In this document: piece after piece, positions 1,413 through 48,422 of the stretch | Numbering within the stretch: position 1 is the first letter of the stretch | Layout of the letters: each line of letters begins with the position of its first letter | Origin: a virus | Direction: 5' to 3' (one strand) | DNA length: 64,000 nt | IMG/VR virus record: IMGVR_UViG_3300029177_000001 | Span: 26,630 to 90,629 of that record | Translations under genes and position numbers: made by a program | The notes under the pieces: model-generated | Seen by the model: only the letters and a program-made list of their open reading frames with translations | Databases searched by the model: none | What the model was told of the DNA's origin: nothing

Positions 1413-2876
1413 ATGGCAAAGAAAATCAGAAAAAAGACTTTATCTCTGGAATCATACCTGGAGGAAATAGTAGAAGAGGATATCAGTGATAACCAGGATG
1501 TACAAAGGTTATTTTGTTGGGAAAATGGGATGATAAATGAGTTGATCAAAACGGTATTGACCGATGATTATATTCCTCCGATTATTTTGGGCGAAGAAGA
1601 TTTAGATGAAGATGTCGTGCAGCAATATATCGTAGATGGAATGCAAAGAAGTTCTGCATTGATTAAATTTAAGCATGAAAACTATAAAATTACAGCTACT
1701 TTAGAAGATCCGATTATCCAATATCAGAGAAAAAAGAAAGATGAAAACAATAAAATCTGTAAAGATGAATATGGAAAAGTTATTTGGGAATCTGTTGAAT
1801 ATGATTTGAGAAGAAAAACATATGAAATGTTGCCGCCAGAATTGAAAAAAATGTTTGATGATTATCAGATTGATATTACAATACATCAACACTGCACGAT
1901 GTCACAGATTAGTAAGTTGGTGAGAAGATATAACAATCATTTGGGAATGAATACATCTCAGAAAGCATTTACTTATATTGATTTACATGCAAGAAAAATA
2001 AGGACAATATCTGAGAAAAATAAATTCTTTAAAAATTGTATGTCTTGTTCCGGTAAACAGCAATCGAAAGGTATTAGAGAAAGACTTGTATGTGAATCTG
2101 TCATGACAACGTTTTTCTTTGATAACTGGAAAAGTGCAATAAAAAATATGAGCAAATACCTAAATGAGAATGCAACAGAAGAACATTTTGATACTGTAAA
2201 TGAATATTTTAGCAGGATTGAATCTGTGTGCAAAGATAATTTCACAGAAGTGTTTGTGCCAAAAAATGTTATTGTTTGGATTCCTGTGTTTAAAGAGTTT
2301 GCTAAATTTGGATTAGATGATATTAAGTTTAAGGATTTTGTAGAAGAATTTGAAAAGTCTTTATATAAAAAAGATGTAAATGGAGTAACATTTGACAAAT
2401 TAAACGAGGATCGTCATACAAAAGGCAAGGCTATTTTAAAAGAGAAAATTAACATCTTAACTGCTCTCATGAAAGAGTATTTACATATTAAAGAAGATGA
2501 AGGAAACTTTGTTGAAGTAGAAGAGAATAATGTAATTGAAAATGTTTGTACAGAACAGAATACACTAGAATTCATCAGACATAACGTAAAAGAAGATGTT
2601 ATCGAAGATGATATTGAATTGTACAAATCACTGCTAGAAGACTGGTCAGTGGAAGTGGATAATTCGTCAAAACTTCTTGAACCTGGAAATAATAATTCAT
2701 TACTTGCCGTAATTGCATACAGTATTGAAAATGAACTTGATGAAGAAATTCCGGCATGGATGATGAGTTTCTTTAAGAGAAACGATACATATATTAAAGA
2801 TCAGAAAGAGAATTATACATATATGGTGAATGATCTTAGTGAATTTTTGAGACATAAATATGAACTTGCTGGATAG
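1413..2876 (+). CDS. DUF262 / ParB-like nuclease-domain protein (GmrSD N-domain-like)
   Basis: 487-aa ORF with strong RBS (TTGGAGGAAT); N-terminal DG(M/Q)QR motif (VDGMQRSSAL) typical of DUF262; no DUF1524/HNH half recognisable. Confidence 0.6.
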   Translation: MAKKIRKKTLSLESYLEEIVEEDISDNQDVQRLFCWENGMINELIKTVLTDDYIPPIILGEEDLDEDVVQQYIVDGMQRSSALIKFKHENYKITATLEDPIIQYQRKKKDENNKICKDEYGKVIWESVEYDLRRKTYEMLPPELKKMFDDYQIDITIHQHCTMSQISKLVRRYNNHLGMNTSQKAFTYIDLHARKIRTISEKNKFFKNCMSCSGKQQSKGIRERLVCESVMTTFFFDNWKSAIKNMSKYLNENATEEHFDTVNEYFSRIESVCKDNFTEVFVPKNVIVWIPVFKEFAKFGLDDIKFKDFVEEFEKSLYKKDVNGVTFDKLNEDRHTKGKAILKEKINILTALMKEYLHIKEDEGNFVEVEENNVIENVCTEQNTLEFIRHNVKEDVIEDDIELYKSLLEDWSVEVDNSSKLLEPGNNNSLLAVIAYSIENELDEEIPAWMMSFFKRNDTYIKDQKENYTYMVNDLSEFLRHKYELAG

Positions 2877-2893
2877 ATGGAGGTGAATAATAT

Positions 2894-3055
2894 ATGGATA
2901 AAACATTTTGGAACATAATGTCAGTAGGTGGATTAATTACATCGTGTTTAGCCGGCGCTAGATTATATGAAATTGGAGAAGAAGCATTTTTCTATGGATT
3001 TGTATTGGGTATCGGAGCATTGATGTTCGCTGCAAAATATATGGGAGATGAATAG
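2894..3055 (+). CDS. small membrane protein (53 aa)
   Basis: RBS GGAGGTGA 8 nt upstream of ATG; two hydrophobic segments. Confidence 0.35.
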   Translation: MDKTFWNIMSVGGLITSCLAGARLYEIGEEAFFYGFVLGIGALMFAAKYMGDE

Positions 3056-3159
3056 GAAAGAAAATGACAGTGGAAGAAATGCGACAGAAGATTGAAGAGC
3101 CGACAGGAGCAGAGATCGAGATTGTATAAATGTAATAATTAAAAAAGGAGAAATAAATT

Positions 3160-3924
3160 ATGTGTGAATTTAAAAGTGGAATTATTTTTAAGAATAGGGT
3201 GGAACTTGCGCCATTAGGGAATGAAAGTCATTCAAGTTTACTTGAAAACTTGGATGTAGAAGATAATGAATTTAATGCTTCTAAGAAATTTGTGAGAGCA
3301 GAATTAATTCCGCCAGAGAGATATGTTATCACTTCTGATATTTCAAAGTGGACTTATAAAGTCGATCAGGATATTGTGCCAGAATGGTATAGTAACGATC
3401 CAGAGAGATATGAAGAGGAATTTAAAGAATCTGTTAAGAATTTTATGGATAAAAATTTTACAGATGAATTTGGATATTATTGGACAAACATTCGAATGGA
3501 TGGAAAGATATATCATTTTATGTATGGAGTTCTTACGAAGATGAGTTTTGGTAGCAATAATAATTACGCAGAATCTTCTGTAAGAAAATATCTTAAAGAG
3601 CACAAACTTGCAAAAGACATTAAAGATAAATATGGGAATAGTATTGTTCCGTTTGAAAATAACTTGCTTAGTATGGATGGATTTAATGATTATGGCGTTG
3701 TAAAAGACGATGTATTATCTATTCCGACATTTTATTTATTCAGAAAATGTGGTGAAAAACTTCCATTAATCAATTATGCATACTGGCAGTCAACTCCAAA
3801 CCAGACACCGTCAAGAAAAGATTCTTCCTATGTTCAGGTTGTCTACAGTGGTGGGAACATGGGTTACGACGATTGCTGCTGGCTTGATCATGGGGTTCGT
3901 CCGTTTTTTATCACCGAATCTTAA
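3160..3924 (+). CDS. DGR target (variable) protein with C-terminal VR, CLec/FGE-like fold inferred
   Basis: 254-aa ORF, RBS AAAGGAGAAA; the last ~30 codons are a diverged copy of the downstream TR; C-terminus ...GNMGYDDCCWLDHGVRPFF. Confidence 0.8.
   Translation: MCEFKSGIIFKNRVELAPLGNESHSSLLENLDVEDNEFNASKKFVRAELIPPERYVITSDISKWTYKVDQDIVPEWYSNDPERYEEEFKESVKNFMDKNFTDEFGYYWTNIRMDGKIYHFMYGVLTKMSFGSNNNYAESSVRKYLKEHKLAKDIKDKYGNSIVPFENNLLSMDGFNDYGVVKDDVLSIPTFYLFRKCGEKLPLINYAYWQSTPNQTPSRKDSSYVQVVYSGGNMGYDDCCWLDHGVRPFFITES
3824..3912 (+). repeat. DGR variable repeat (VR)
   Basis: 89-nt ungapped match to 4409-4497; 13 of 16 mismatches fall at TR adenines; 3 non-A mismatches cluster at the 3' end (IMH-like). 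Confidence 0.8.
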
Positions 3925-3953
3925 ATCTGTTTATCTTGTCGATAACATTTTGT

Positions 3954-3998
3954 GGAGACGAAGACAGAACAATGCGCAAGCGTTGTTCGTAAGTCTCC
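3954..3998 (+). promoter_or_regulatory. GC-rich hairpin downstream of VR (putative DGR target-recognition stem-loop)
   Basis: GGAGAC...GAACAA-[tgcgcaagcg]-TTGTTC...GTCTCC inverted repeat ~40 nt 3' of the VR end. Confidence 0.4.
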
Positions 3999-4027
3999 GA
4001 AGAACTAAATGCAAGATTGGGGGTCAT

Positions 4028-4381
4028 GTGGAAGTTATTACAAAAGCTATTGATTTGATGCAGTATACATATTCTGTAACTTCAAATAAAAAGAGATATC
4101 CTGCGAAATATAGAATGCTTATAGAACGAATCCAGAATGAGTGTATGAATATATATGATTTCTTAATGAGCGCAAATAGAGTACAACTGAATATTGATAG
4201 ACAAGAAAGATTGGAATTGCAAACAAAATCGATTTCGTCATGTGACAAATTGTCCTGCTATGTTGAATTATCAATGAATATTAACCTTATAGGATCAGAT
4301 ACAGTTGAATATTGGCAGAAAAAGATATGCGATGTTAAGTACATGACAATAGCATGGAGAAGCAAAGATAAAACAAGATAA
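4028..4381 (+). CDS. avd: DGR accessory variability determinant (Avd)-like protein
   Basis: ~117-codon ORF between target gene and TR/RT, the canonical Avd position and size; GTG start with GGGGG 5 nt upstream (alternative ATG at 4058); the listed 201-aa ORF 3776-4381 overlaps the target gene and is probably only real from here. Confidence 0.5.
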   Translation: MEVITKAIDLMQYTYSVTSNKKRYPAKYRMLIERIQNECMNIYDFLMSANRVQLNIDRQERLELQTKSISSCDKLSCYVELSMNINLIGSDTVEYWQKKICDVKYMTIAWRSKDKTR

Positions 4382-4408
4382 AATTTTTTTTGGTTGTTTG
4401 CTATATGA

Positions 4409-4497
4409 CTTCCTATGTTCAGATTGTCAACAGTAATGGGAACATGAATTACAACGATTGCAACTGGAATAATCATGGAGTTCGTCCGTTCTGGATC
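4409..4497 (+). repeat. DGR template repeat (TR)
   Basis: non-coding copy of VR; encodes AAY-rich string (N G N M N Y N D C N W N N H G) characteristic of DGR templates; the ORF 4390-4623 over it is spurious. Confidence 0.8.
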
Positions 4498-4609
4498 GGA
4501 AGACGAAATAGAGTAAGAGAAACACTGAAATTAGAGTCCCGATATCAAAAGAGCAAACAACCTTTCCTGTCTAATCAAAGACAGGATAAATACAAAGGTA
4601 GAATATATC

Positions 4610-5647
4610 ATGATAAAAGGTAAAACAGATTTTGAAAAGGTATCGGATTTTGAAAATTTATATAAAGCGTATTTGGATTCAAAAGGTGGAAGAGGATTCA
4701 CAAAAAGCAGAATTAAATTTGAAATATCTGCCCTTGATGGGGTGTACCAGATTAAAAGACTTTTAGAAACAAAGAGATATGAAGTAGATAGATATAACAG
4801 ATTCAAAGTATATGAACCAAAAGAGAGAATTATAGAAGCAGGAAGTTTTAAAGACAAGATTGTGCAGCACAGTTTGTGTGACAATGTACTTCTTCCTATT
4901 TTAAGTAAGGAGTTTATATACACGAATTATGCTGGACAAGTAGGTAAAGGGACATTGTTTGGCTTAGACTGTTTGAAATATCAGATGTATTTAGCATATC
5001 AAAAATATGGATATGATTGCTGGATTATCAAAGGAGATATCAAAAAATTTTTTTATAATATTGAGCATGATGTTTTGAAAGATATTGTTTCTTACTTTAT
5101 ATCAGATTCAGATACATATTGGCTGTGCGAGAAATTCATTGATAGCACAAGTGAAAAAGGTCTACCGCTTGGAAATCAAGTTAGTCAGGTATTTGCTTTG
5201 TTATATCTCTCTGGTTTTGATCATTTTATAACCGGAGAATTAGGAATTAAATATTACGGGAGATACATGGATGATTTTTACTTAATTGTAGAATCAAAAG
5301 ATTATGCAAAATTCTGTTTACATGCTGCTGAAGAGTTTACTAAAACATTAGATATTGATCTGAATGAAAAAACTCAGATTATTCCTTTTAAAAATGGAAT
5401 TAAATTTTGTGGTTTTCACACCTATGTTACAAAAGATGGAAAAGTGATAAGAAAACTTGCAAATGAAAAGAAGAGAAAAGCAAAAAAGAAATATCGAAAA
5501 ATGGCAAAGATGTTAAGAGAGAATAAGTTATCAAAAGAAAAATTCCTAGAATCTTATGAATCTTGGAAGAATCATATTTCACATGGAAATTGTGTGAAAT
5601 TCACGTATGAGATGGACAAAATGGTGAATGAAATACTGTTTGGTTGA
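4610..5647 (+). CDS. DGR reverse transcriptase
   Basis: RT motifs incl. GLPLGNQVSQ (DGR-type [I/L]GxxxSQ rather than group II SP) and YGRYMDDFY (YxDD); 345 aa with no maturase/endonuclease domains; directly downstream of TR. Confidence 0.9.
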   Translation: MIKGKTDFEKVSDFENLYKAYLDSKGGRGFTKSRIKFEISALDGVYQIKRLLETKRYEVDRYNRFKVYEPKERIIEAGSFKDKIVQHSLCDNVLLPILSKEFIYTNYAGQVGKGTLFGLDCLKYQMYLAYQKYGYDCWIIKGDIKKFFYNIEHDVLKDIVSYFISDSDTYWLCEKFIDSTSEKGLPLGNQVSQVFALLYLSGFDHFITGELGIKYYGRYMDDFYLIVESKDYAKFCLHAAEEFTKTLDIDLNEKTQIIPFKNGIKFCGFHTYVTKDGKVIRKLANEKKRKAKKKYRKMAKMLRENKLSKEKFLESYESWKNHISHGNCVKFTYEMDKMVNEILFG

Positions 5648-6624: not shown

Positions 6625-6695
6625 TGTGGATTAGTGTAACTGGTAGCACGATGCAGCGTGGCACATAAGTAAAGGTTCGATTCCTTTATCTACAA
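6625..6695 (+). tRNA. tRNA-like element (acceptor, D-arm and T-arm fold; anticodon arm non-canonical) - possible pseudo-tRNA or tRNA-derived site
   Basis: 7-bp acceptor pairing tgtggat/atctaca (one G-U), D-arm gtgt-aactggta-gcac, T-arm aaagg-TTCGATT-ccttt; no canonical 5-bp anticodon stem found (only cacg/cgtg with 6-nt loop containing GCA). Confidence 0.3.
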
Positions 6696-12959: not shown

Positions 12960-13778
12960 ATGGATAACAGCAATTTAGCAAAAAGAATGAAACAATATGA
13001 AAGTGTTTCAAAATCAACATTGATAAGACGTATGCCAGTGATCATCAGGCTTGACGGTAGAAGTTTTCATACATTTACAAAAGGGTTTAAAAGACCATTC
13101 GATGATGTATTAGTAAAAACAATGCAAGAGACAATGAAATACCTTTGTGAAAATATTCAAGGATGTGTATTAGGTTATACGCAGTCTGATGAAATTACAC
13201 TTGTGTTAGTAGATTATAAGAACTTAGATTCTCAACCTTGGTTTGATGATGAAGTGCAGAAGATATGTAGTATTGCAGCAAGTATGGCAACTATGGCTTT
13301 TAATAAAAATTTTGAACTTTTTTCTTTAACGATGCGATTAAAAGACTCTGTAGAAAGTAATAAACTTGGTGCAGTATATAAACAAGCAATGAATAAAGGT
13401 GCAATGTTTGATGCAAGATGTTTCAATATTCCAAAAGAAGAAGTAACTAATAATATTTACTGGAGACAACTTGATGCAACGAGAAATTCTATTCAAATGG
13501 TAGGACAAGCTAATTTTTCACATAAAGAATTACAGAATAAATCGTGCAATCAAATTCAAGACATGTTATTTACACAAAAAGGAATTAACTGGAATGATAT
13601 TTCTACATATTTAAAAAGAGGAAGTTGCTGCATTAGAGAAAATTATATTTTTGAAAATTCAAACCCAAATGGTGAGACGTGTGTAGAACGAAGTCGTTGG
13701 ATAATCGACAAAGAAATCCCTATTTTTAAGGGTGAGAATAGAGAATATATTAATAGATTGGTATATGTAGGAGAATAA
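12960..13778 (+). CDS. Thg1-like protein (tRNA-His guanylyltransferase family 3'-5' nucleotidyltransferase)
   Basis: N-terminal KRMKQYE...IIRLDGRSFHTFTKGF...GYTQSDEITLVL closely matches the Thg1 family signature (RIDGRxFHxF ... SDE). Confidence 0.7.
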   Translation: MDNSNLAKRMKQYESVSKSTLIRRMPVIIRLDGRSFHTFTKGFKRPFDDVLVKTMQETMKYLCENIQGCVLGYTQSDEITLVLVDYKNLDSQPWFDDEVQKICSIAASMATMAFNKNFELFSLTMRLKDSVESNKLGAVYKQAMNKGAMFDARCFNIPKEEVTNNIYWRQLDATRNSIQMVGQANFSHKELQNKSCNQIQDMLFTQKGINWNDISTYLKRGSCCIRENYIFENSNPNGETCVERSRWIIDKEIPIFKGENREYINRLVYVGE

Positions 13779-13782
13779 AACT

Positions 13783-14202
13783 GTGATTTCAAAAGAAGAA
13801 ATAATGAAGAAAAAAGACAGGTATAAACTACTTTTACATGCAAAAGATCAGTATTCAAAGGATTTTAATCGTGACTATGAGTTTAAGCATTTATCAAAAA
13901 ATACATTACATAAATTACTAAAGCAATACAAGCATTCGTGTATGGCTGAATGGAGCTATTGTTGCTATGGATTGTATCAAAATTGTTGGCAGGAACCATA
14001 TTTTGAAGGAAATTGGGATATGTCTCAGGAAAGAGTTGACGACGTGATCAGATATGTTATTGATAAAACTGCTAAGATCTGCAGAAAAGATAGCAGAATC
14101 TTGTATTGCAAAGATAATAATGAGATAAACATTGTAATTGTGGCAAGAGATGTATGCAAAAATGATTACTTGATTACATTTACAAATGAGGAAATGGAAT
14201 GA
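13783..14202 (+). CDS. hypothetical protein
   Basis: 139-aa ORF (GTG start; alternative ATG 13804). Confidence 0.45.
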   Translation: MISKEEIMKKKDRYKLLLHAKDQYSKDFNRDYEFKHLSKNTLHKLLKQYKHSCMAEWSYCCYGLYQNCWQEPYFEGNWDMSQERVDDVIRYVIDKTAKICRKDSRILYCKDNNEINIVIVARDVCKNDYLITFTNEEME

Positions 14203-14543
14203 TGAATGTAATTGTTTTAAGTAAAAGAGAGCCGAATATAATTGATGTAGAATACTGGTGCGAAATTACGGAATATCTGGATGAATACATTAGGAAAAAT
14301 TATGGTAAGTTTAATCATTATTTTAGATGTTACATATATGACTGCAGAAGCTGGTGCAATAATACAATAGCGATTCGTATGCCAGGATCAACAATTGGAT
14401 GCATTCAGTTTGACGACGAAAATGTAATTACAGAATGTTGTATTTATGATGATGTAATATCTAAGAGTAGATGTTTTTCTGAAGACATCAATGAACGACT
14501 AAAACGGTTTGTTGGAAGAACATTGAAATTTCAAGAAGAATAG
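14199..14543 (+). CDS. hypothetical protein
   Basis: 114-aa ORF, ATGA overlap. Confidence 0.45.
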   Translation: MMNVIVLSKREPNIIDVEYWCEITEYLDEYIRKNYGKFNHYFRCYIYDCRSWCNNTIAIRMPGSTIGCIQFDDENVITECCIYDDVISKSRCFSEDINERLKRFVGRTLKFQEE

Positions 14544-14553
14544 AGGTGAAAAA

Positions 14554-15153
14554 GTGAATTATTATATTAGTGATTTACATTTATTTCATAAGAATGTGAC
14601 GAATGAAGGTTCTAATTTTGACAATAGACCATTTGATACATTGGAAGAAATGCATAAAGTGATTAAGGAAAATTGGAATTCGAAAATTACTAATGCGGAT
14701 CATGTCTATATTTTAGGAGATTTGGCATGGAAGGAAAACGAAGATGCGATTAAACTTGTTAGTACATTGCGTGGTAATAAACATCTAATTCTTGGCAATC
14801 ACGATAAAGCAACAGATCAAAGATATAAACAGTTATTTGTAGAAATAGCAAATTATAAAGAAGCGAAAGATATGATTGACGGAAAAGAGCATCATGTCGT
14901 AATGTCTCACTTTCCATTGGCTTTTTGGAATCATCAGCATCATTACAGAAGAGATGGAAAAGAGCATAAAGTGTGGTCTGTTCACTTATATGGGCACGTA
15001 CATAATTCTATGGAAGAAGATTATTATCAAGAGTATATCAAAAAACTAAACAGTGAATATGAAATTAAGTGCGTAGCAAAAAATGTAGGGTGTATGTTGT
15101 GGAATTATACACCAGTAACATTGAAAGAAATTTTAGGCAGTAAAGGAGAATAA
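14554..15153 (+). CDS. calcineurin-like metallophosphoesterase
   Basis: DLHLFH ... GDLAW ... GNHD ... GHVH motifs of the metallophosphatase superfamily. Confidence 0.65.
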   Translation: MNYYISDLHLFHKNVTNEGSNFDNRPFDTLEEMHKVIKENWNSKITNADHVYILGDLAWKENEDAIKLVSTLRGNKHLILGNHDKATDQRYKQLFVEIANYKEAKDMIDGKEHHVVMSHFPLAFWNHQHHYRRDGKEHKVWSVHLYGHVHNSMEEDYYQEYIKKLNSEYEIKCVAKNVGCMLWNYTPVTLKEILGSKGE

Positions 15154-15157
15154 ATTT

Positions 15158-15475
15158 ATGAGAGCAATGCTAAGTCAACCAATGGCAGGAAAAACAGATG
15201 AAGAAATTGTAAATACAAGAGAAAAGGCAATTGAATATCTAAGAGATAGAGGATATGAAGTTGTGAATACTTTGTTTACAGACGAATGGTATTCAAAACA
15301 AGTGAATGAATGTAATATTACAAATAGAGGACTCTTCTTTTTAGCAAAATCTTTAGAGCAGATGTCGTTATGTAATATTGTTTATTTTTGCAAAGGGTGG
15401 GAAGATTACAGAGAATGTCGTATTGAACACGCTGCAGCAATCTCTTATGGATTGGATATTATTTACGAGGAGTAA
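15158..15475 (+). CDS. hypothetical protein (possibly DUF4406 / nucleoside 2-deoxyribosyltransferase-like)
   Basis: 105-aa ORF; weak resemblance only. Confidence 0.35.
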   Translation: MRAMLSQPMAGKTDEEIVNTREKAIEYLRDRGYEVVNTLFTDEWYSKQVNECNITNRGLFFLAKSLEQMSLCNIVYFCKGWEDYRECRIEHAAAISYGLDIIYEE

Positions 15476-15480
15476 TTTTA

Positions 15481-15789
15481 ATGGGTAGTTTTGAAATACA
15501 TGGAATTCAAAATGTAAGCTTTGTAGATCTTAAAACTGGAAAGAAGATAAATATAGAAAATGCAGAAGTATCGACATTGAGCGAAAGCAAGGATGTTAAT
15601 GAGCGGAAACCTACTGGTAAGCTGGATATTTCTAAAACACCACATTTTACATGTGAACTTACATATCTAAATAGGAAGGAACTCTTTTGGGCATTATATG
15701 GAATCACAAATAACTACAGAAGATTACATGGTGGACATGCATTGAGAGAAACAACCAGAAGAAGATACATAATGAAACATAAAAAATGA
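15481..15789 (+). CDS. hypothetical protein
   Basis: 102-aa ORF. Confidence 0.4.
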   Translation: MGSFEIHGIQNVSFVDLKTGKKINIENAEVSTLSESKDVNERKPTGKLDISKTPHFTCELTYLNRKELFWALYGITNNYRRLHGGHALRETTRRRYIMKHKK

Positions 15790-26564: not shown

Positions 26565-27125
26565 ATGCCAATAGTAAGAAGTGTAGATGGTGTACATATT
26601 GAATATACAATACCATCTAATATTAAGAATTTGATTACAGATGATTTTTTGAATGAATTTTTATATCAACTTATTCGAATTACTGGAATATCACCGTATG
26701 ACTTCGCAGATGAAGGAATAGAATATCTGTCAGGAACCTGTGGTTGGGATGCTGCATTTGGAAAGGCTTGTATTAACACGAAAAATAAGAAATTATTTGA
26801 CTATAGAAATTCATTGGAATGGTATGATTCAGACATTTTTGATTCAGAAATAATCTGTGTTCTAATTGATAGAGAATTCATCTTAGGATATAAGACCGAT
26901 ATTATCAAGAAAGAGCTTGATGTTGAGTATGAAGATGTGGATGTGTGTGATAAATGTGGAAAGCTAATGAGAAGAGATCTACTTATTAAAAACGGAGAAG
27001 AATATATATGTCCACATTGTAAAGATGTAGATAATGGTGATACATATGGGAATGGCACATCTGATTATTATAGAGAAATATGCATAGAAGTAGATGAATA
27101 TTATAGGAGAACCAAAGATGAGTAA
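26565..27125 (+). CDS. hypothetical protein with C-terminal zinc ribbon
   Basis: CDKCGK...CPHCKD. Confidence 0.45.
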   Translation: MPIVRSVDGVHIEYTIPSNIKNLITDDFLNEFLYQLIRITGISPYDFADEGIEYLSGTCGWDAAFGKACINTKNKKLFDYRNSLEWYDSDIFDSEIICVLIDREFILGYKTDIIKKELDVEYEDVDVCDKCGKLMRRDLLIKNGEEYICPHCKDVDNGDTYGNGTSDYYREICIEVDEYYRRTKDE

Positions 27126-35090: not shown

Positions 35091-36119
35091 ATGAATCTGA
35101 AACAAATTAAAGAAACGATAAAGAAACAAGAATATGATTTCTTAAAAGAGAATGAGCACTTAGGTAACAATATTATCTTACTTACGCTTGGCGGCAGTCA
35201 CGCATATGGAATGGATAAAGAGGACAGTGATTTAGACGTAAGAGGAGTTACACTAAATAGCAAAGAGGAAATTCTTCTTGGAAAAGACTTTGAACAGGTT
35301 GTAGAGATTGATACAGATACGACAGTTTATTCATTCAATAAAATTTTACAATTACTAAAATCAAACAATCCTAACACTATTGAAATTTTAGGATGTAAAC
35401 CTGAGCATTATTTATATTTGTCTGATGTTGGAAGAGAATTGTTAAATAATAGAAAAATGTTCTTATCCAAGATTTGTATTAATTCTTTTGCAGGATACGC
35501 TTCAAGTCAATTAAGGCGTATGGAGAACAAAGCTGCTAGATTAGTTGGACAAGCACAAAATGAAGAGTACATTTTAAAATCAATTAATAATGCAAGTTAT
35601 GATTTTAAAAATCGTTATTTCCCAATGAATGATGGATCACTCAATCTTTATACAGATAAAGCAGTACAGGAAGGCTATGACACTGAAATTTTTATGGATA
35701 TTGACTTGCGACATTATCCTCTAAGAGATTGGGCTGGTATGTGGAATGAGATGAAAGCTATTGTAAGTAGTTATAACAAAATCGGTAGGCGAAACGAAAA
35801 AGCAATGAACAAGGACAAACTTGGAAAGCATATGGCTCATTTGATCAGATTATACATGATGTGTATTGACATTCTTGAAAAAGAAGAAATTATCACTTAT
35901 CGAGATAAAGAACATGATCTACTTATGAGTATACGAAACGGAGAATACTTAGATATCAATAGGCAGCCAACTTCTGAATTTTATGATTTGCTAAATGAAT
36001 ATGAAAAACGATTCGATTACGCTAAAGAAAATACTTCGTTGCCAAATGTACCGGACTACAAGAGAATCGAAGAGTTTAAAATGTATGTAAATGAACGAAT
36101 TGTGAAAGGAGATATATAA
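35091..36119 (+). CDS. Pol-beta superfamily nucleotidyltransferase
   Basis: GGSHAYGMDKEDSDLDVRGV = GS-x9-DxD minimal NTase signature. Confidence 0.6.
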   Translation: MNLKQIKETIKKQEYDFLKENEHLGNNIILLTLGGSHAYGMDKEDSDLDVRGVTLNSKEEILLGKDFEQVVEIDTDTTVYSFNKILQLLKSNNPNTIEILGCKPEHYLYLSDVGRELLNNRKMFLSKICINSFAGYASSQLRRMENKAARLVGQAQNEEYILKSINNASYDFKNRYFPMNDGSLNLYTDKAVQEGYDTEIFMDIDLRHYPLRDWAGMWNEMKAIVSSYNKIGRRNEKAMNKDKLGKHMAHLIRLYMMCIDILEKEEIITYRDKEHDLLMSIRNGEYLDINRQPTSEFYDLLNEYEKRFDYAKENTSLPNVPDYKRIEEFKMYVNERIVKGDI

Positions 36120-37081
36120 TGGATATTTCTGAAAAACTGAAAGAACGTTTCTGTAAAGATTGTAATATTCCATTGAAACTATTTAAGGAACCATATTTTA
36201 CAGACAGACTTCAATTATATGATAACTATTACAATACATTGGATAAATGGAATATTTTTGTAAGAGAATTAGATAAATATAAGTGTGAGCAAGATTATCT
36301 TGAAGAATATAATCGAGTAAAGAATGCTGCAATAAAGGACATTAAAGATTCTGATGGTTACAAGAGATTTAATGTAGAAGACATGAATAAGTACACAGTA
36401 AAATACAAAGATCTTCCGGGAAAAGATATTTATAAACCATCAAACATCGGAAAACTGTTTATCAGTATTGATATGAGAAAGGCAAATTTTTCAGCATTAA
36501 AATTTTATGATAAAAGTATTTTTAGTAACTCTGATACATGGGAAGAATTTATTGAAAGATATACGGAGAATAAACATATCGTAAACAGCAAATATATTAG
36601 ACAAGTCATTCTTGGAAACTGTAATCCTAAAAGGCAGGTGACTTATGAAAAATATTTGATGGGTCTTGTATTAGAAGTTCTTATTGATGAATTAGGATAT
36701 TCCACTAGTGATATTGCGTTTTACTCTAATGATGAAATTGTTATTGATATGGGAAAATATAAAGGCTGTATAAATAAACAAAAAATATTAGAAATGGCAG
36801 TTAACGTACGTTTTAATATTCCATTCAGGATTGAATTGTTTTACTTACACAAAATTACTGGTACAGATGGATATTACAAGGAAATTGTAAAAAATATTAT
36901 TGAAATAGAATATGAATTTAAATGCTTAAACAATTATACATTACCATTTGTGCTGAGAAAGTTTAATGGAGAAGAAATCACTGAAAACGATAAAGTATTT
37001 TATCATGAAGGGCTACTATCAAAGTTTATGGAAGTACCAAATATGGAGGTAAAATTGAATGAAAATAAATATTCCGTCTGA
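36119..37081 (+). CDS. hypothetical protein (320 aa)
   Basis: sits between NTase and CCA-adding enzyme, overlapping both. Confidence 0.45.
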   Translation: MDISEKLKERFCKDCNIPLKLFKEPYFTDRLQLYDNYYNTLDKWNIFVRELDKYKCEQDYLEEYNRVKNAAIKDIKDSDGYKRFNVEDMNKYTVKYKDLPGKDIYKPSNIGKLFISIDMRKANFSALKFYDKSIFSNSDTWEEFIERYTENKHIVNSKYIRQVILGNCNPKRQVTYEKYLMGLVLEVLIDELGYSTSDIAFYSNDEIVIDMGKYKGCINKQKILEMAVNVRFNIPFRIELFYLHKITGTDGYYKEIVKNIIEIEYEFKCLNNYTLPFVLRKFNGEEITENDKVFYHEGLLSKFMEVPNMEVKLNENKYSV

Positions 37082-38396
37082 TGCAAATGAGTTGATTCAT
37101 ACACTTCAAAATCACGGAAATTCCGCTTATGTGGTAGGTGGTTGTGTAAGAGATAGCATCATTGGAAGACAAATTCACGATTGGGATATTTGTACATCTG
37201 CAACACCAGACGAAATGCTGGAGATTTTTAAGGATAAAAAAGTAATTGAAACTGGCTTAAAACACGGAACTATAACTGTTGTGGTAAAAGGAGAATCATA
37301 TGAATTAACAACATTTCGTATTGATGGAAAATATTCTGATAGTCGTAGACCTGATTCAGTAATTTTCACAAGTAGTTTAATTGAAGATTTAAAGAGACGT
37401 GATTTCACAATCAATGCAATGGCATATAATGATGACGAAGGATTAATTGATCCATTTGGGGGATTAGAAGATATTGAATATAAAAAAATTCAATGTGTAG
37501 GTTCTGAAAAAGATAGATTTGGAGAAGATGCTTTAAGGATCTTGAGAGCAATTCGTTTTGCTTCTCAACTTGAATTTGTGATGACCCCGGAAACAAGTTA
37601 TGAAATCAATAAACAATACAAAAATTTGAAGAATATTTCGATTGAGAGAATAAATAGTGAGTTTTGCAAAATCGCCGCATCAAGAGATTTCTGTGTAGAA
37701 ATGGTTTTATATAAAGATGTGTTTGCATTGTTTATACCGGAATTAAAAGATATGTTTGAATTCCAACAGAATAACCCATATCACGATTATGATGTTTACA
37801 GTCATACAGTACATTCAATTGAACATTGTAAATCCGATAATTTGGTTGTTAGATTGGCGGTTTTCTTTCATGATATTGGAAAACCTCATTCATTTCAAGA
37901 TGGCGAAGACGGTATTAGACACTTTAAAGGACATGGAAAAGTTAGTGCAGACATTACAGACAATATTATGAAACGTCTCAAATTTGACAATGAGACAAGA
38001 AATAATGTGGTTGAATTGGTGTATTACCATGATGCAACCTTTGAGGTTGGTAAAAAATATGTGAGAAGATGGATCAATAAGATTGGAGTAGAACAGTTTA
38101 GAAGACTATTGGAAGTTAGGAAAGCAGATATTTTAGGGCAGAAAGAATCTTATGAGCAGTATAGGATTAACAAAGTTAATAATATTAAACAAATTCTTGA
38201 AGAAGTTCTACGAGAAGAAACATGTTTTACACTTAAAGATTTAGCTGTCAATGGCAACGATTTAATGAGTATTGGTTATAAAGAAAACAAAGAATTAGGC
38301 AATACACTAAATGAATTATTACGATTAGTAATTGATGAAGAATGTCCTAATAAAAAAGAAAAATTATTAGAAGTAGCAATTGAAAGGAGAATGTAA
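37059..38396 (+). CDS. cca: CCA-adding tRNA nucleotidyltransferase with HD domain
   Basis: GGCVRD head-domain motif, RRDFTINA, HD motif (FHDIGK), RBS GGAGGT. Confidence 0.8.
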   Translation: MKINIPSDANELIHTLQNHGNSAYVVGGCVRDSIIGRQIHDWDICTSATPDEMLEIFKDKKVIETGLKHGTITVVVKGESYELTTFRIDGKYSDSRRPDSVIFTSSLIEDLKRRDFTINAMAYNDDEGLIDPFGGLEDIEYKKIQCVGSEKDRFGEDALRILRAIRFASQLEFVMTPETSYEINKQYKNLKNISIERINSEFCKIAASRDFCVEMVLYKDVFALFIPELKDMFEFQQNNPYHDYDVYSHTVHSIEHCKSDNLVVRLAVFFHDIGKPHSFQDGEDGIRHFKGHGKVSADITDNIMKRLKFDNETRNNVVELVYYHDATFEVGKKYVRRWINKIGVEQFRRLLEVRKADILGQKESYEQYRINKVNNIKQILEEVLREETCFTLKDLAVNGNDLMSIGYKENKELGNTLNELLRLVIDEECPNKKEKLLEVAIERRM

Positions 38397-39302
38397 TTGA
38401 TTAAATTATTCACACACCGGGATTTAGATGGAATTGGTTGTGCGGTTCTGGCACAATTGACATTTGGTAAAAATGTAGATATTACATATTGTAACTATGA
38501 TGAAGTAGATTCTCTTGTGAAAGAATACATTACCAAAATGGACAAAGATCATGATACGTGTTTTATTACAGACATTAGTATTAAGGATGATTTGGCTTCT
38601 GAGATTGATAGAGAATATAAAAATAATTTCAAATTATTTGATCATCACAAAACAGCATTAGAACTCAATAAATATGATTGGTGTACTGTTGAAACAGAGA
38701 ATAATGATACAGGTCTTATGACAAGCGGTACAGAATTATTTAGTAAATATCTGATTGACCATAAATATTTAGATGTGGATGTAAGTGATTTTGTAAGAAT
38801 TGTAACAGATTACGACACATGGAGATGGTCAACACTTGGTAAGGACGGACTCGTTTCAAAAGATGTAAATGACTTGTTGTATTTATATGGAAGAGAAAAA
38901 TTTGAAACGTGGTGTATTAGATGTATTGAATCTGGCAGATTTCCTCATTTTGACCAAGAGTCAAGTTTGATGTTGTCATTTAATAGGAATGAAATTGAAA
39001 AATATATCAAAGAAAAAGATAAGACAATTATTGTTAAGTGCAATGGAGAATATATGTATGGTGTTGTTTTTGCAGATAAATATATCAGTGAATTAGGTAA
39101 TGAATTATGTAAATTGAATAGAGAACTTGATTATATTGCAATTGTAAATATGAGTACACGTTCAGTTTCTTATAGAACTATCAAAGATGATATTGACATG
39201 GGTATGATTGCAAAGAAATATGGAGGCGGTGGTCATCCAAAAGCAGCAGGATCAAAATTTGATGTTTATAAACTTGCAAGATTTCTTGATGAGTTGTTGT
39301 GA
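38397..39302 (+). CDS. DHH/DHHA1 phosphoesterase (NrnA-like oligoribonuclease / pAp phosphatase)
   Basis: THRDLDGIGCA, FDHH, C-terminal GGGGHPKAAG (DHHA1); TTG start after AAAGGAG. Confidence 0.75.
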   Translation: MIKLFTHRDLDGIGCAVLAQLTFGKNVDITYCNYDEVDSLVKEYITKMDKDHDTCFITDISIKDDLASEIDREYKNNFKLFDHHKTALELNKYDWCTVETENNDTGLMTSGTELFSKYLIDHKYLDVDVSDFVRIVTDYDTWRWSTLGKDGLVSKDVNDLLYLYGREKFETWCIRCIESGRFPHFDQESSLMLSFNRNEIEKYIKEKDKTIIVKCNGEYMYGVVFADKYISELGNELCKLNRELDYIAIVNMSTRSVSYRTIKDDIDMGMIAKKYGGGGHPKAAGSKFDVYKLARFLDELL

Positions 39303-47321: not shown

Positions 47322-48422
47322 GTGGAGAAGAATTATGTACCAACTAAAGAAGAGTTGTACAACGAGATTATTAGAGTATATAAGAAATGCGAAAAAATGA
47401 ACAAGATAATTCTAAAGGAAGAATCTAATATAGAAATAAGTGATTATTGTTTACATAAGCATGGAGGACTACAAAAGATATGTAAGGAATTGAATATACC
47501 ATTTACATTCCACCAAAGAGTTGATCATAAGGATGTTGTTCAAGATTTATTGAGGGTATTTAATGAGCATCAATATTTAAGTACAGAAAGTTATAAGAAA
47601 TACGGTAAATATTCTGTTACCTGCGTTAAAGATCATTTTGATGGATCTTTTAATAAAGCATTAGAAACTCTTAATTTACCTATTAATATGTATAAGAATG
47701 TTACGAAAAAAGATATTAAAGATGACGTTTTAGAAATATTTAAAGACAAAAAAGTTAGTAGTACTGTTTACAGACGCGATGGCAAATATTCACAATCTAC
47801 CATTGAACGATTATTTGGTTCATGGAAAGGACTAATGAAAGAAATGGATTTGCCATATACTTCACATGATTATGGATTTGATGAAATGTTAAGGCAATTA
47901 AATAATGTGTATGAAAAATATGGATGCATAAATAAAACACTGATAGATGAGGAATGTGACTTTACTTATCAGGCATTGAAATATTATATAAAAGATAAAG
48001 AAGAACTATGTAAATTACTTAATAAAGAAAATTTGTTTTCAGATTCTTTGAGTGTAAAAGCTAATCTTTTAAGACGTATATTATATTTATTATTCGGAGA
48101 TGAAAATATTGAATCTGAAAAAACATGGAGTTGGTTAAAAAATGATAAAACTCAAAAAAATCTATATGTTGATTTCTATATAGATAAATTTAATTTAGCA
48201 ATTGAATACGATGGAATACAACATTACAAGATGTATACAAGTTTTCATAGAACTGAACAAGATTTCATTGACTCTTGCGCTAGAGATAAATTAAAAGAAA
48301 AACTTTTAAAGCAACACAAAATTGATTTAATAAGAATCCCATATACATTAAAGTTATGTGAAAAAAATGTAAATAATCTTGTAATTAGCAACTTATTAAG
48401 TAAGAATGGAACGAAAATATGA
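47322..48422 (+). CDS. putative free-standing homing endonuclease: repeated DNA-binding modules + C-terminal Vsr/DUF559-like endonuclease domain
   Basis: three ~50-aa repeats (...GKYSxxTIERLFGSWxxALxxLNLP) and C-terminal FNLAIEYDGIQHY...RDKLKEKLLKQHKIDLIRIPY. Confidence 0.5.
   Translation: MEKNYVPTKEELYNEIIRVYKKCEKMNKIILKEESNIEISDYCLHKHGGLQKICKELNIPFTFHQRVDHKDVVQDLLRVFNEHQYLSTESYKKYGKYSVTCVKDHFDGSFNKALETLNLPINMYKNVTKKDIKDDVLEIFKDKKVSSTVYRRDGKYSQSTIERLFGSWKGLMKEMDLPYTSHDYGFDEMLRQLNNVYEKYGCINKTLIDEECDFTYQALKYYIKDKEELCKLLNKENLFSDSLSVKANLLRRILYLLFGDENIESEKTWSWLKNDKTQKNLYVDFYIDKFNLAIEYDGIQHYKMYTSFHRTEQDFIDSCARDKLKEKLLKQHKIDLIRIPYTLKLCEKNVNNLVISNLLSKNGTKI

Follow-up and report, generated by a model that had tools for sequence, protein, structure and literature searches.

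Why would a bacteriophage encode a polymerase that adds nucleotides in the 3'-to-5' direction, and does this enzyme work with the phosphoesterase encoded close to it? These questions are raised by a 64,000-nucleotide stretch of viral DNA (positions 26,630 to 90,629 of IMG/VR record IMGVR_UViG_3300029177_000001; hereafter the window), for which an initial annotation had proposed the first half of a transfer RNA (tRNA) repair toolkit, composed of a Thg1-like protein (TLP), of the templated 3'-5' RNA polymerase family, and a calcineurin-type metallophosphoesterase (MPE) two genes downstream. Both open reading frames (ORFs) exist as annotated on the + strand, at 12960..13778 (272 amino acids) and 14554..15153 (199 amino acids). 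Judged by its sequence, the first is a genuine bacterial-type TLP with intact catalytic residues, and it looks functional. The MPE is a neighbour of this gene and not a demonstrated partner; the other tRNA-end enzymes that we found lie in a separate module at 35091-39302.

The assignment of the TLP is supported by several comparisons. A search with the hidden Markov model of the Thg1 family (Pfam PF04446) gave 115.2 bits (gathering cut-off, 29.2; E 2.5e-33) and covered model positions 2-130 of 130; PHROG 4717, 'tRNA-His guanylyltransferase', matched with E 1.2e-90, and residues 5-270 matched the structure of the Bacillus thuringiensis TLP (BtTLP; PDB ID: 4KGK) with E 2.3e-63. The motifs that had first suggested the family could be placed precisely: RLDGRSFHTF contains R30 and D32, and SDE corresponds to S76-D77-E78. 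For the C-terminal domain, the Pfam Thg1C model scored 22.9 bits, under its cut-off of 26.3; residues 148-270 align with BtTLP 126-239 at 102 bits. The ORF begins with ATG, and a Shine-Dalgarno-like sequence, AGGGG, lies approximately 10 nt upstream.

When the protein is aligned with 127 relatives from the fetched loci and with the BtTLP sequence, the active site is seen to be complete. Ten residues (E14, R30, D32, S76, D77, E78, K101, R153, R169 and N176, corresponding in the same order to BtTLP E12, R28, D30, S74, D75, E76, K99, R131, R147 and N154) are each conserved in at least 97% of the relatives. The three catalytic carboxylates, D32, D77 and E78, align with D30, D75 and E76 of BtTLP and with D29, D76 and E77 of the human enzyme, and are 98-100% conserved. 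The residues for nucleoside triphosphate (NTP) binding and activation (E14, R30, S76, K101 and R153) are likewise kept, with one conservative change, R45 at the position of BtTLP K43. Roles are documented for the first eight of the BtTLP residues, E12 to R131 in the order given above; R147 is named, its catalytic role not having been fully investigated, and N154 is not mentioned (PMC3701042).

Full-length alignment, the carboxylates, the arginines and lysine that bind NTPs, the serine of the activation step and the C-terminal domain are all shared with BtTLP (4KGK/4KGM). In contrast to that bacterial protein, the phage-encoded TLP carries approximately 20 extra residues at 117-147 and eight more at approximately 234-241; the first of these regions is a variable insertion of 20-35 residues in the TLPs of this gut-phage clade. 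The best matches in the PDB are TLPs (4KGK, 2e-63; 5AXK, 6e-14), whereas eukaryotic Thg1 structures reach only 1e-7 to 1e-10, and M180 aligns with M158 of BtTLP, where yeast Thg1 has N161. On these two grounds the protein is assigned to the repair-type TLP subclass and not to the eukaryotic Thg1 type. It shares with yeast and human Thg1 the same fold and the same two-metal active site, but its similarity to them, at approximately 1e-7, extends over the N-terminal 90 residues; with a methionine in place of the Thg1-type asparagine, it would be expected to be template-dependent and repair-oriented, and not a non-templated adder of G-1 opposite A73. The gene is also under strong purifying selection, as the ratio of nonsynonymous to synonymous substitution rates (dN/dS) is 0.06 in comparison with the closest relative (locus L001), an IMG/VR contig of 164 kb whose gene order follows that of the window and whose TLP is 96% identical.

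Does the window encode other enzymes that act on tRNA ends? Between 35091 and 39302, four overlapping or abutting genes follow one another on the + strand: an RlaP-family Pol-beta nucleotidyltransferase (35091..36119; Pfam RlaP PF10127, 75 bits), a 320-amino-acid ORF (36119..37081), a CCA-adding tRNA nucleotidyltransferase with an HD domain (37059..38396; NF009814, 302.5 bits with a cut-off of 290; PolyA_pol, 136.6 bits; HD, 30.5 bits; PHROG 2244) and a DHH/DHHA1 phosphoesterase of NrnA/RecJ-like type (38397..39302; PHROG 4771, E 8e-30; Pfam scores close to the cut-offs, with 26.2 bits for DHH and 26.0 bits for DHHA1). Members of the RlaP family add one or two nucleoside monophosphates to damaged RNA 3' ends (PMC12776372), and the RlaP protein is a putative co-worker of the TLP. 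To define the synteny of these genes we fetched 80 IMG/VR loci with the 320-residue ORF, 78 of them with enough flanking sequence. RlaP lies directly upstream of the ORF in 76 of the 78; the CCA enzyme lies directly downstream in approximately 55, followed by the DHH protein in 37. The four genes are a tight module. The initial idea of a tRNA-repair toolkit is therefore supported in one respect, as further tRNA-end enzymes (RlaP, CCA and DHH) are present, and not supported in another, the role of the MPE as its second half.

The second gene of the module could not be named by sequence comparison: the 320-residue ORF has no Pfam, PHROG, NCBIfam or PDB-sequence match, singly or as a profile, and a profile of its family run against PDB sequences, together with Pfam scans of each member, returned nothing credible. 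The family comprises approximately 1,600 homologous clusters at 50% identity and reaches into giant viruses; homologs occur in only four GenBank phage records. In a diverse alignment of 62 sequences, D118, D205, E206, K158 and R161 are nearly invariant, and an AlphaFold model built from this alignment reached pLDDT 95.7 and pTM 0.91 (a first AF2 model, made from a shallow alignment of sequences 85-97% identical, had pLDDT 49 and was discarded). When compared with predicted viral structures, the model matched uncharacterised giant-virus proteins over its full length (TM 0.72-0.84, E ~1e-16), some of them fused to R3H or DEDDy-exonuclease domains. From the model and the alignment, the description that fits the protein best is that of a minimal PolB-like palm-and-fingers protein adjoining RlaP, that is, one with a predicted minimal family-B-polymerase-like fold. 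It is tempting to speculate that it refills the acceptor 3' strand by template, ahead of RlaP and the CCA enzyme.

Taken together, these results lead us to favour, with some reserve, the reading that the TLP is an active stand-alone enzyme for the maintenance of tRNA 5' ends, acting on host and/or phage tRNAs and complementing the separate 3'-end module. If the phage protein follows the mechanism of its family, it would first activate the 5'-monophosphate of a tRNA with ATP or GTP, then add nucleotides in the 3'-to-5' direction, with the 3' strand of the acceptor stem as template and two metals held by D32 and D77, and would in this way restore missing 5'-terminal nucleotides, including G-1 opposite C73 of tRNA-His. 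The data themselves show the family membership, the intact active site, purifying selection and the gene context, while the substrate, the timing of action and any part in counter-defence are what we infer from them. Gene context was assessed in 80 IMG/VR loci with the TLP, taken with 10 kb of flank on each side, and, for 103 loci of the clade, by an unbiased clustering that took in every ORF up to 6 kb from the TLP. In L060 the TLP starts 26 nt after an array of 13 tRNAs, and in L073 an array ends approximately 400 nt before it; RlaP is the next gene after the TLP in four loci (L010, L028, L035 and L086); and the TLP and the RlaP/PolB-like/CCA module occur together on at least 11 IMG/VR contigs, 2-46 kb apart, the separation in the window being approximately 22-23 kb. 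All three observations count in favour of tRNA-end maintenance, as does the earlier proposal of this role for phage Thg1 (PMC7824862). PHROG scans, which took in all coding-strand ORFs of the window of at least 300 amino acids, detected no RNA ligase (Rnl or RtcB) and no polynucleotide kinase, which fits the filling of ends rather than the sealing of anticodon breaks.

Several observations weigh against this reading. No tRNA lies within 10 kb of the TLP in 67 of the 80 IMG/VR loci, and the neighbourhood of the gene is extremely mosaic, no neighbouring family being found in more than 26 of the 103 loci. In 12 of the 103 RlaP is no more than 6 kb away from the TLP, barely above the chance expectation of approximately 8% for a 150-kb genome; despite the four loci with adjacent genes we therefore claim no TLP-RlaP operon, and the TLP and the module, which share genomes and a genome arm, are not physically coupled. 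Hypothetical genes surround the TLP in cultured phages, and a literature search for a biochemical or genetic study of any phage TLP found none. The K43 residue replaced by R45 contacts ATP in BtTLP (the position is K in 72 and R in 50 of the 127 relatives). Finally, no defence that truncates tRNA 5' ends was found among the bacterial systems of two 2026 papers. The tRNA-targeting systems named there cut the anticodon loop (PrrC, VapC and colicin E5, as well as PARIS), the T-loop (Cash) or the CCA tail (Cas12a3). The TLP can mend none of these cuts; of the three sites only the CCA tail is repairable here, by the CCA enzyme. The suggestion in the initial annotation that the TLP defends the phage against tRNA-cleaving systems of the host is thus a possible hypothesis that lacks a target among these systems.

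An extension of the same reading would make the TLP and the RlaP/mini-PolB-like/CCA/DHH genes two arms of one system for repair of the tRNA acceptor stem. The 320-residue enzyme would then refill the acceptor 3' strand on the 5'-strand template, RlaP would add the untemplated discriminator base, the CCA enzyme would rebuild the tail, and the TLP would do the mirror job on the 5' strand, so that the phage could survive host effectors that degrade the ends of tRNAs, for instance Cas12a3-like CCA-tail nucleases or as yet unrecognised 5'-end nucleases. We think it improbable that the two arms form one such system. The RNA-repair sets of jumbo phages, which also combine RlaP, a CCA-adding enzyme and Thg1 in one genome (Iyer, Anantharaman, Krishnan, Burroughs and Aravind 2021, PMC7824862), are a close parallel; unlike them, the phage considered here is approximately 160 kb in size and so below the jumbo range, its window yielded no RNA ligase or kinase, and its RlaP is locked to the PolB-like protein and not to a ligase.

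In the window, Aragorn reports no tRNA and misses an element at 6625..6695 (+) that matches the Rfam tRNA model with 46.9 bits and is a tRNA-like gene derived from tRNA-His, with anticodon GUG. Its D arm and the loop segment GUGGC-ACA match those of the canonical phage tRNA-His of L073, and the next-best match of a covariance model is a canonical phage tRNA-His. The element differs from the L073 tRNA-His in that its anticodon arm has 16 nt instead of 17, that U-1:A73 replaces G-1:C73, and that no CCA is encoded; the L073 tRNA-His has G-1:C73 and an encoded CCA. Variants in L001 (2444-2514) and L082 are likewise one nucleotide short and keep the GUG unchanged. The window and L001 copies share 91% identity, compared with approximately 78% for the flanking genes, and one change in the acceptor stem (G4.U69 to A4-U69) keeps the pairing; for these reasons the element looks maintained rather than decaying. 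Its RNA is a possible substrate of the TLP. We also considered the element as a general companion of the TLP, an idea rejected because, of 100 sources searched with the covariance model, the window and L001 alone contain it. A tRNA-His(GUG) of L065 (L065:5554-5627) has a normal anticodon arm and an 8-bp acceptor stem closed by U-1:A73. Non-standard anticodon loops are recurrent in these phages: a different tRNA of 71 nt with a six-nucleotide anticodon loop (L010:5155-5225, L035:3800-3870 and L028:5149-5219; Aragorn 'tRNA-?(Gln|Pro)(tg)') is flanked by tRNA-Ile(UAU) and tRNA-Gln(UUG), approximately 5 kb upstream of the TLP.

The ORF at 14554-15153 was correctly recognised as a calcineurin-type phosphoesterase. 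The five motifs of the family occur in order (D7-x-H9, G55-D56, G81-N82-H83-D84, H119 and G147-H148-x-H150), PHROG 547 'phosphoesterase' matches with E 8e-39, and the protein aligns end to end, with all metal-binding motifs, with Aquifex aeolicus aq_1665 (PDB ID: 1XM7; E 1.1e-11). The family assignment is based on these three results because the Pfam Metallophos models (PF00149 and PF12850) gave no match even at E <= 1. Since aq_1665 has no assigned substrate, the match to 1XM7 names the fold of the aq_1665-like MPE and not its function. Between TLP and MPE lie two small ORFs on the + strand, at 13783-14202 and 14199-14543, both without a Pfam, PHROG or NCBIfam match, functionally unassigned and 98% identical in L001. 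The first is absent from relatives other than L001 among the 80 loci, and homologs of the second beyond L001 are weak (28-36% identity) and occupy scattered upstream positions in 13 other loci. Directly after the MPE, at 15158..15475 (+), is the gene for a DUF4406 or nucleoside 2-deoxyribosyltransferase-like protein (Pfam DUF4406, 23.9 bits with a cut-off of 22; PHROG 355, E 1e-18). No NCBIfam model matched the TLP, the MPE, the DUF4406 protein, RlaP or the 320-residue ORF.

Could the MPE remodel RNA termini for the TLP, as the initial annotation proposed? Only 775 nt separate the two genes, which share a strand, and the interval holds no convincing promoter or terminator (a scan of it gave fewer promoter-like sites than shuffled sequence); calcineurin-type phosphoesterase domains, moreover, heal RNA ends in bacterial Pnkp/Hen1 repair. 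The link between the two genes is nevertheless not conserved. A blastn comparison of L001 with the window gives a block of 1,600 nt at 96% identity that spans the TLP and the two small ORFs as far as 14553, the base just ahead of the MPE start; the match resumes at 15651, and L001 has 162 nt in place of the MPE, the DUF4406 gene and the start of the next ORF. Window positions 14554-15650 are thus an indel of approximately 1.1 kb relative to L001, with a breakpoint exactly at the MPE start codon. No more than 11 of the 80 IMG/VR loci carry an MPE homolog in the 10 kb on either side of the TLP; these have 33-45% identity and lie at scattered offsets on both sides, and the best GenBank homolog (MT835469, 72% identity) is surrounded by unrelated genes, none of them neighbours of the MPE in the window. 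A conserved TLP-MPE adjacency was rejected for its absence from L001 and its scattered positions in the few loci that have it. A second, unrelated Metallophos family (PF00149, 257 amino acids), which might be cited in support of a coupling, is found 6 kb or less from the TLP in 13 of the 103 loci, again at scattered offsets; together the two families occur in about a quarter of the 12-kb TLP neighbourhoods, a frequency that is not clearly above chance because large phages carry several phosphoesterases, and for which a proper background rate would need whole genomes instead of the flanks used here. When the MPE was compared with all PDB chains by phmmer, only 1XM7 and two chance matches were returned at E <= 1, and no RNA-repair phosphoesterase of Pnkp or lambda type. 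There is, moreover, no obvious place for a phosphoesterase in the TLP pathway, since the enzyme depends on a 5'-phosphate for activation with ATP or GTP (PMC3701042), and a phosphoesterase would remove that phosphate; for the healing of 3' ends the CCA enzyme already has an HD phosphohydrolase domain. A coupled toolkit of TLP and MPE for end healing and end filling is accordingly very improbable, and the MPE is an independently mobile accessory gene outside the TLP pathway.

Two other explanations retain the TLP and change its task. In one, the enzyme is dedicated to tRNA-His maturation and adds the -1 nucleotide to a phage tRNA-His or to the 6625-6695 RNA, with no part in the repair of damage. 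The conserved His-derived gene shared by the window and L001, with its U-1:A73 and no encoded G-1, would suit such a role, as would the U-1:A73 of the L065 tRNA-His and the position of the TLP beside the tRNA arrays of L060 and L073. Bacterial TLPs are able to add G-1 to tRNA-His, but BtTLP is far better on 5'-truncated tRNA than at this reaction (PMC3701042). The canonical tRNA-His of L073 encodes its own G-1:C73 and would need no enzyme, the other loci have no tRNA-His within 10 kb of the TLP, and the element of the window, confined to two of the 100 sources, has a defective anticodon arm and so may be no decoding tRNA; we regard a dedicated maturation role as rather unlikely. In the other explanation the substrate is not a tRNA: the TLP would extend or repair some other RNA at its 5' end (for example a primer, a regulatory RNA of the phage or a fragment of rRNA), or would use its activation step to produce 5' ends that are capped or adenylylated. 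Some eukaryotic TLPs are active on RNAs other than tRNA, and most TLP loci here have no tRNA or RNA-repair gene nearby. The insertion of the clade at 117-147, missing from BtTLP, could alter substrate recognition, and A-pp-RNA intermediates have been noted (PMC8131947). However, the analysis turned up no candidate substrate, all bacterial and archaeal TLPs whose biochemistry has been studied favour tRNA acceptor stems, and the synteny that the TLP occasionally shows is with tRNA arrays and tRNA-end enzymes; we regard a non-tRNA substrate as unlikely.

The window has a G+C content of approximately 31%, with all genes on the + strand, and according to PHROG scans it belongs to a large phage of an anaerobe. 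The scans identify replication genes (DnaB, primase, a large DNA polymerase, a RecD-like exonuclease/helicase and an NAD-dependent DNA ligase), genes of nucleotide metabolism (the anaerobic ribonucleotide reductase NrdD/G, FolD, guanylate kinase and dUTPase), a sigma factor and a DNA methyltransferase of 611 amino acids. Relatives of the TLP gene lie on contigs of 150-190 kb in assemblies of Roseburia, Blautia, Fusicatenibacter and other Lachnospiraceae or Clostridia; on this basis the host is probably a gut member of the Clostridia. At its left end the window carries a diversity-generating retroelement (1413-5647, +), with an Avd-like protein (3776-4381, +; PHROG 3206), a reverse transcriptase (4610-5647, +; PHROG 1423, E 1e-106) and candidate target genes upstream at 1413-2876 and 3160-3924. 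A HNH/homing-endonuclease-like ORF (47322-48422, +) is located in the replication module, between the exonuclease and DNA polymerase genes.

The commonest neighbours of the TLP, each in at most 26 loci, are small unassigned ORFs, a PurA-like protein, a YpsA/SLOG protein and the second MPE family. In 20 relatives (L004-L057, e.g. L023:6735-7826) an adenylosuccinate-synthetase-like gene (Adenylsucc_synt, E 4e-34) that does not occur in the window lies approximately 2 kb upstream of the TLP, and to judge from its sequence it could encode a PurZ-type enzyme for 2-aminoadenine DNA. The YpsA/SLOG-family protein (Pfam YpsA, E 7e-24) is found 0.4-5 kb downstream in 14 relatives (L010-L066, e.g. L045:11415-11891) and is absent from the TLP neighbourhood of the window.

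How unusual is a TLP in a phage? The initial annotation called such genes rare in phages, which is no ground for novelty: tblastn detects TLPs in 164 of 50,697 GenBank phage records (0.3%), most of them annotated 'tRNA-His guanylyltransferase', and the family has a dedicated PHROG. The records include phages of Bacillus, Caulobacter, Mycobacterium, Fusobacterium and Staphylococcus, the Prevotella Lak megaphages and many jumbo phages; the closest of the GenBank phage TLPs have at most 60% identity to the protein of the window. In IMG/VR a pattern-limited scan found at least 284 close relatives, on contigs of 90-200 kb. The proteins of PHROG 4717 (e.g. Fusobacterium phage Fnu1 gp147 and Bacillus phage Bc431v3 gp143) belong to the same family, the TLP of the window being 44-48% identical to those of Fnu1, Staphylococcus PMBT8 and Bacillus phages. 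As here, they are encoded by large phages, in an early or middle region and with small hypothetical genes around them; unlike them, the present TLP belongs to an uncultivated gut-phage clade with Clostridia hosts. The Thg1 gene of Bc431v3 was flagged as unusual in 2013 (PMC3601020), and the survey of jumbo phages by Iyer et al. placed Thg1 beside RlaP and CCA-adding enzymes, restoring nucleotides lost from RNA ends (PMC7824862), so that the idea of phage Thg1 as RNA repair in counter-defence was already published in 2021. The TLP described here is a further member of this known and already annotated phage gene family.

Phage TLPs are therefore a catalogued family, of which the gene in the window is a well-conserved representative, abundant in gut phages and a possible test case. 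The PolB-like family of the 320-residue protein, previously unannotated, is the most interesting result of this analysis; if its members prove to be RNA-end polymerases, they would add a new enzyme class to RNA repair.

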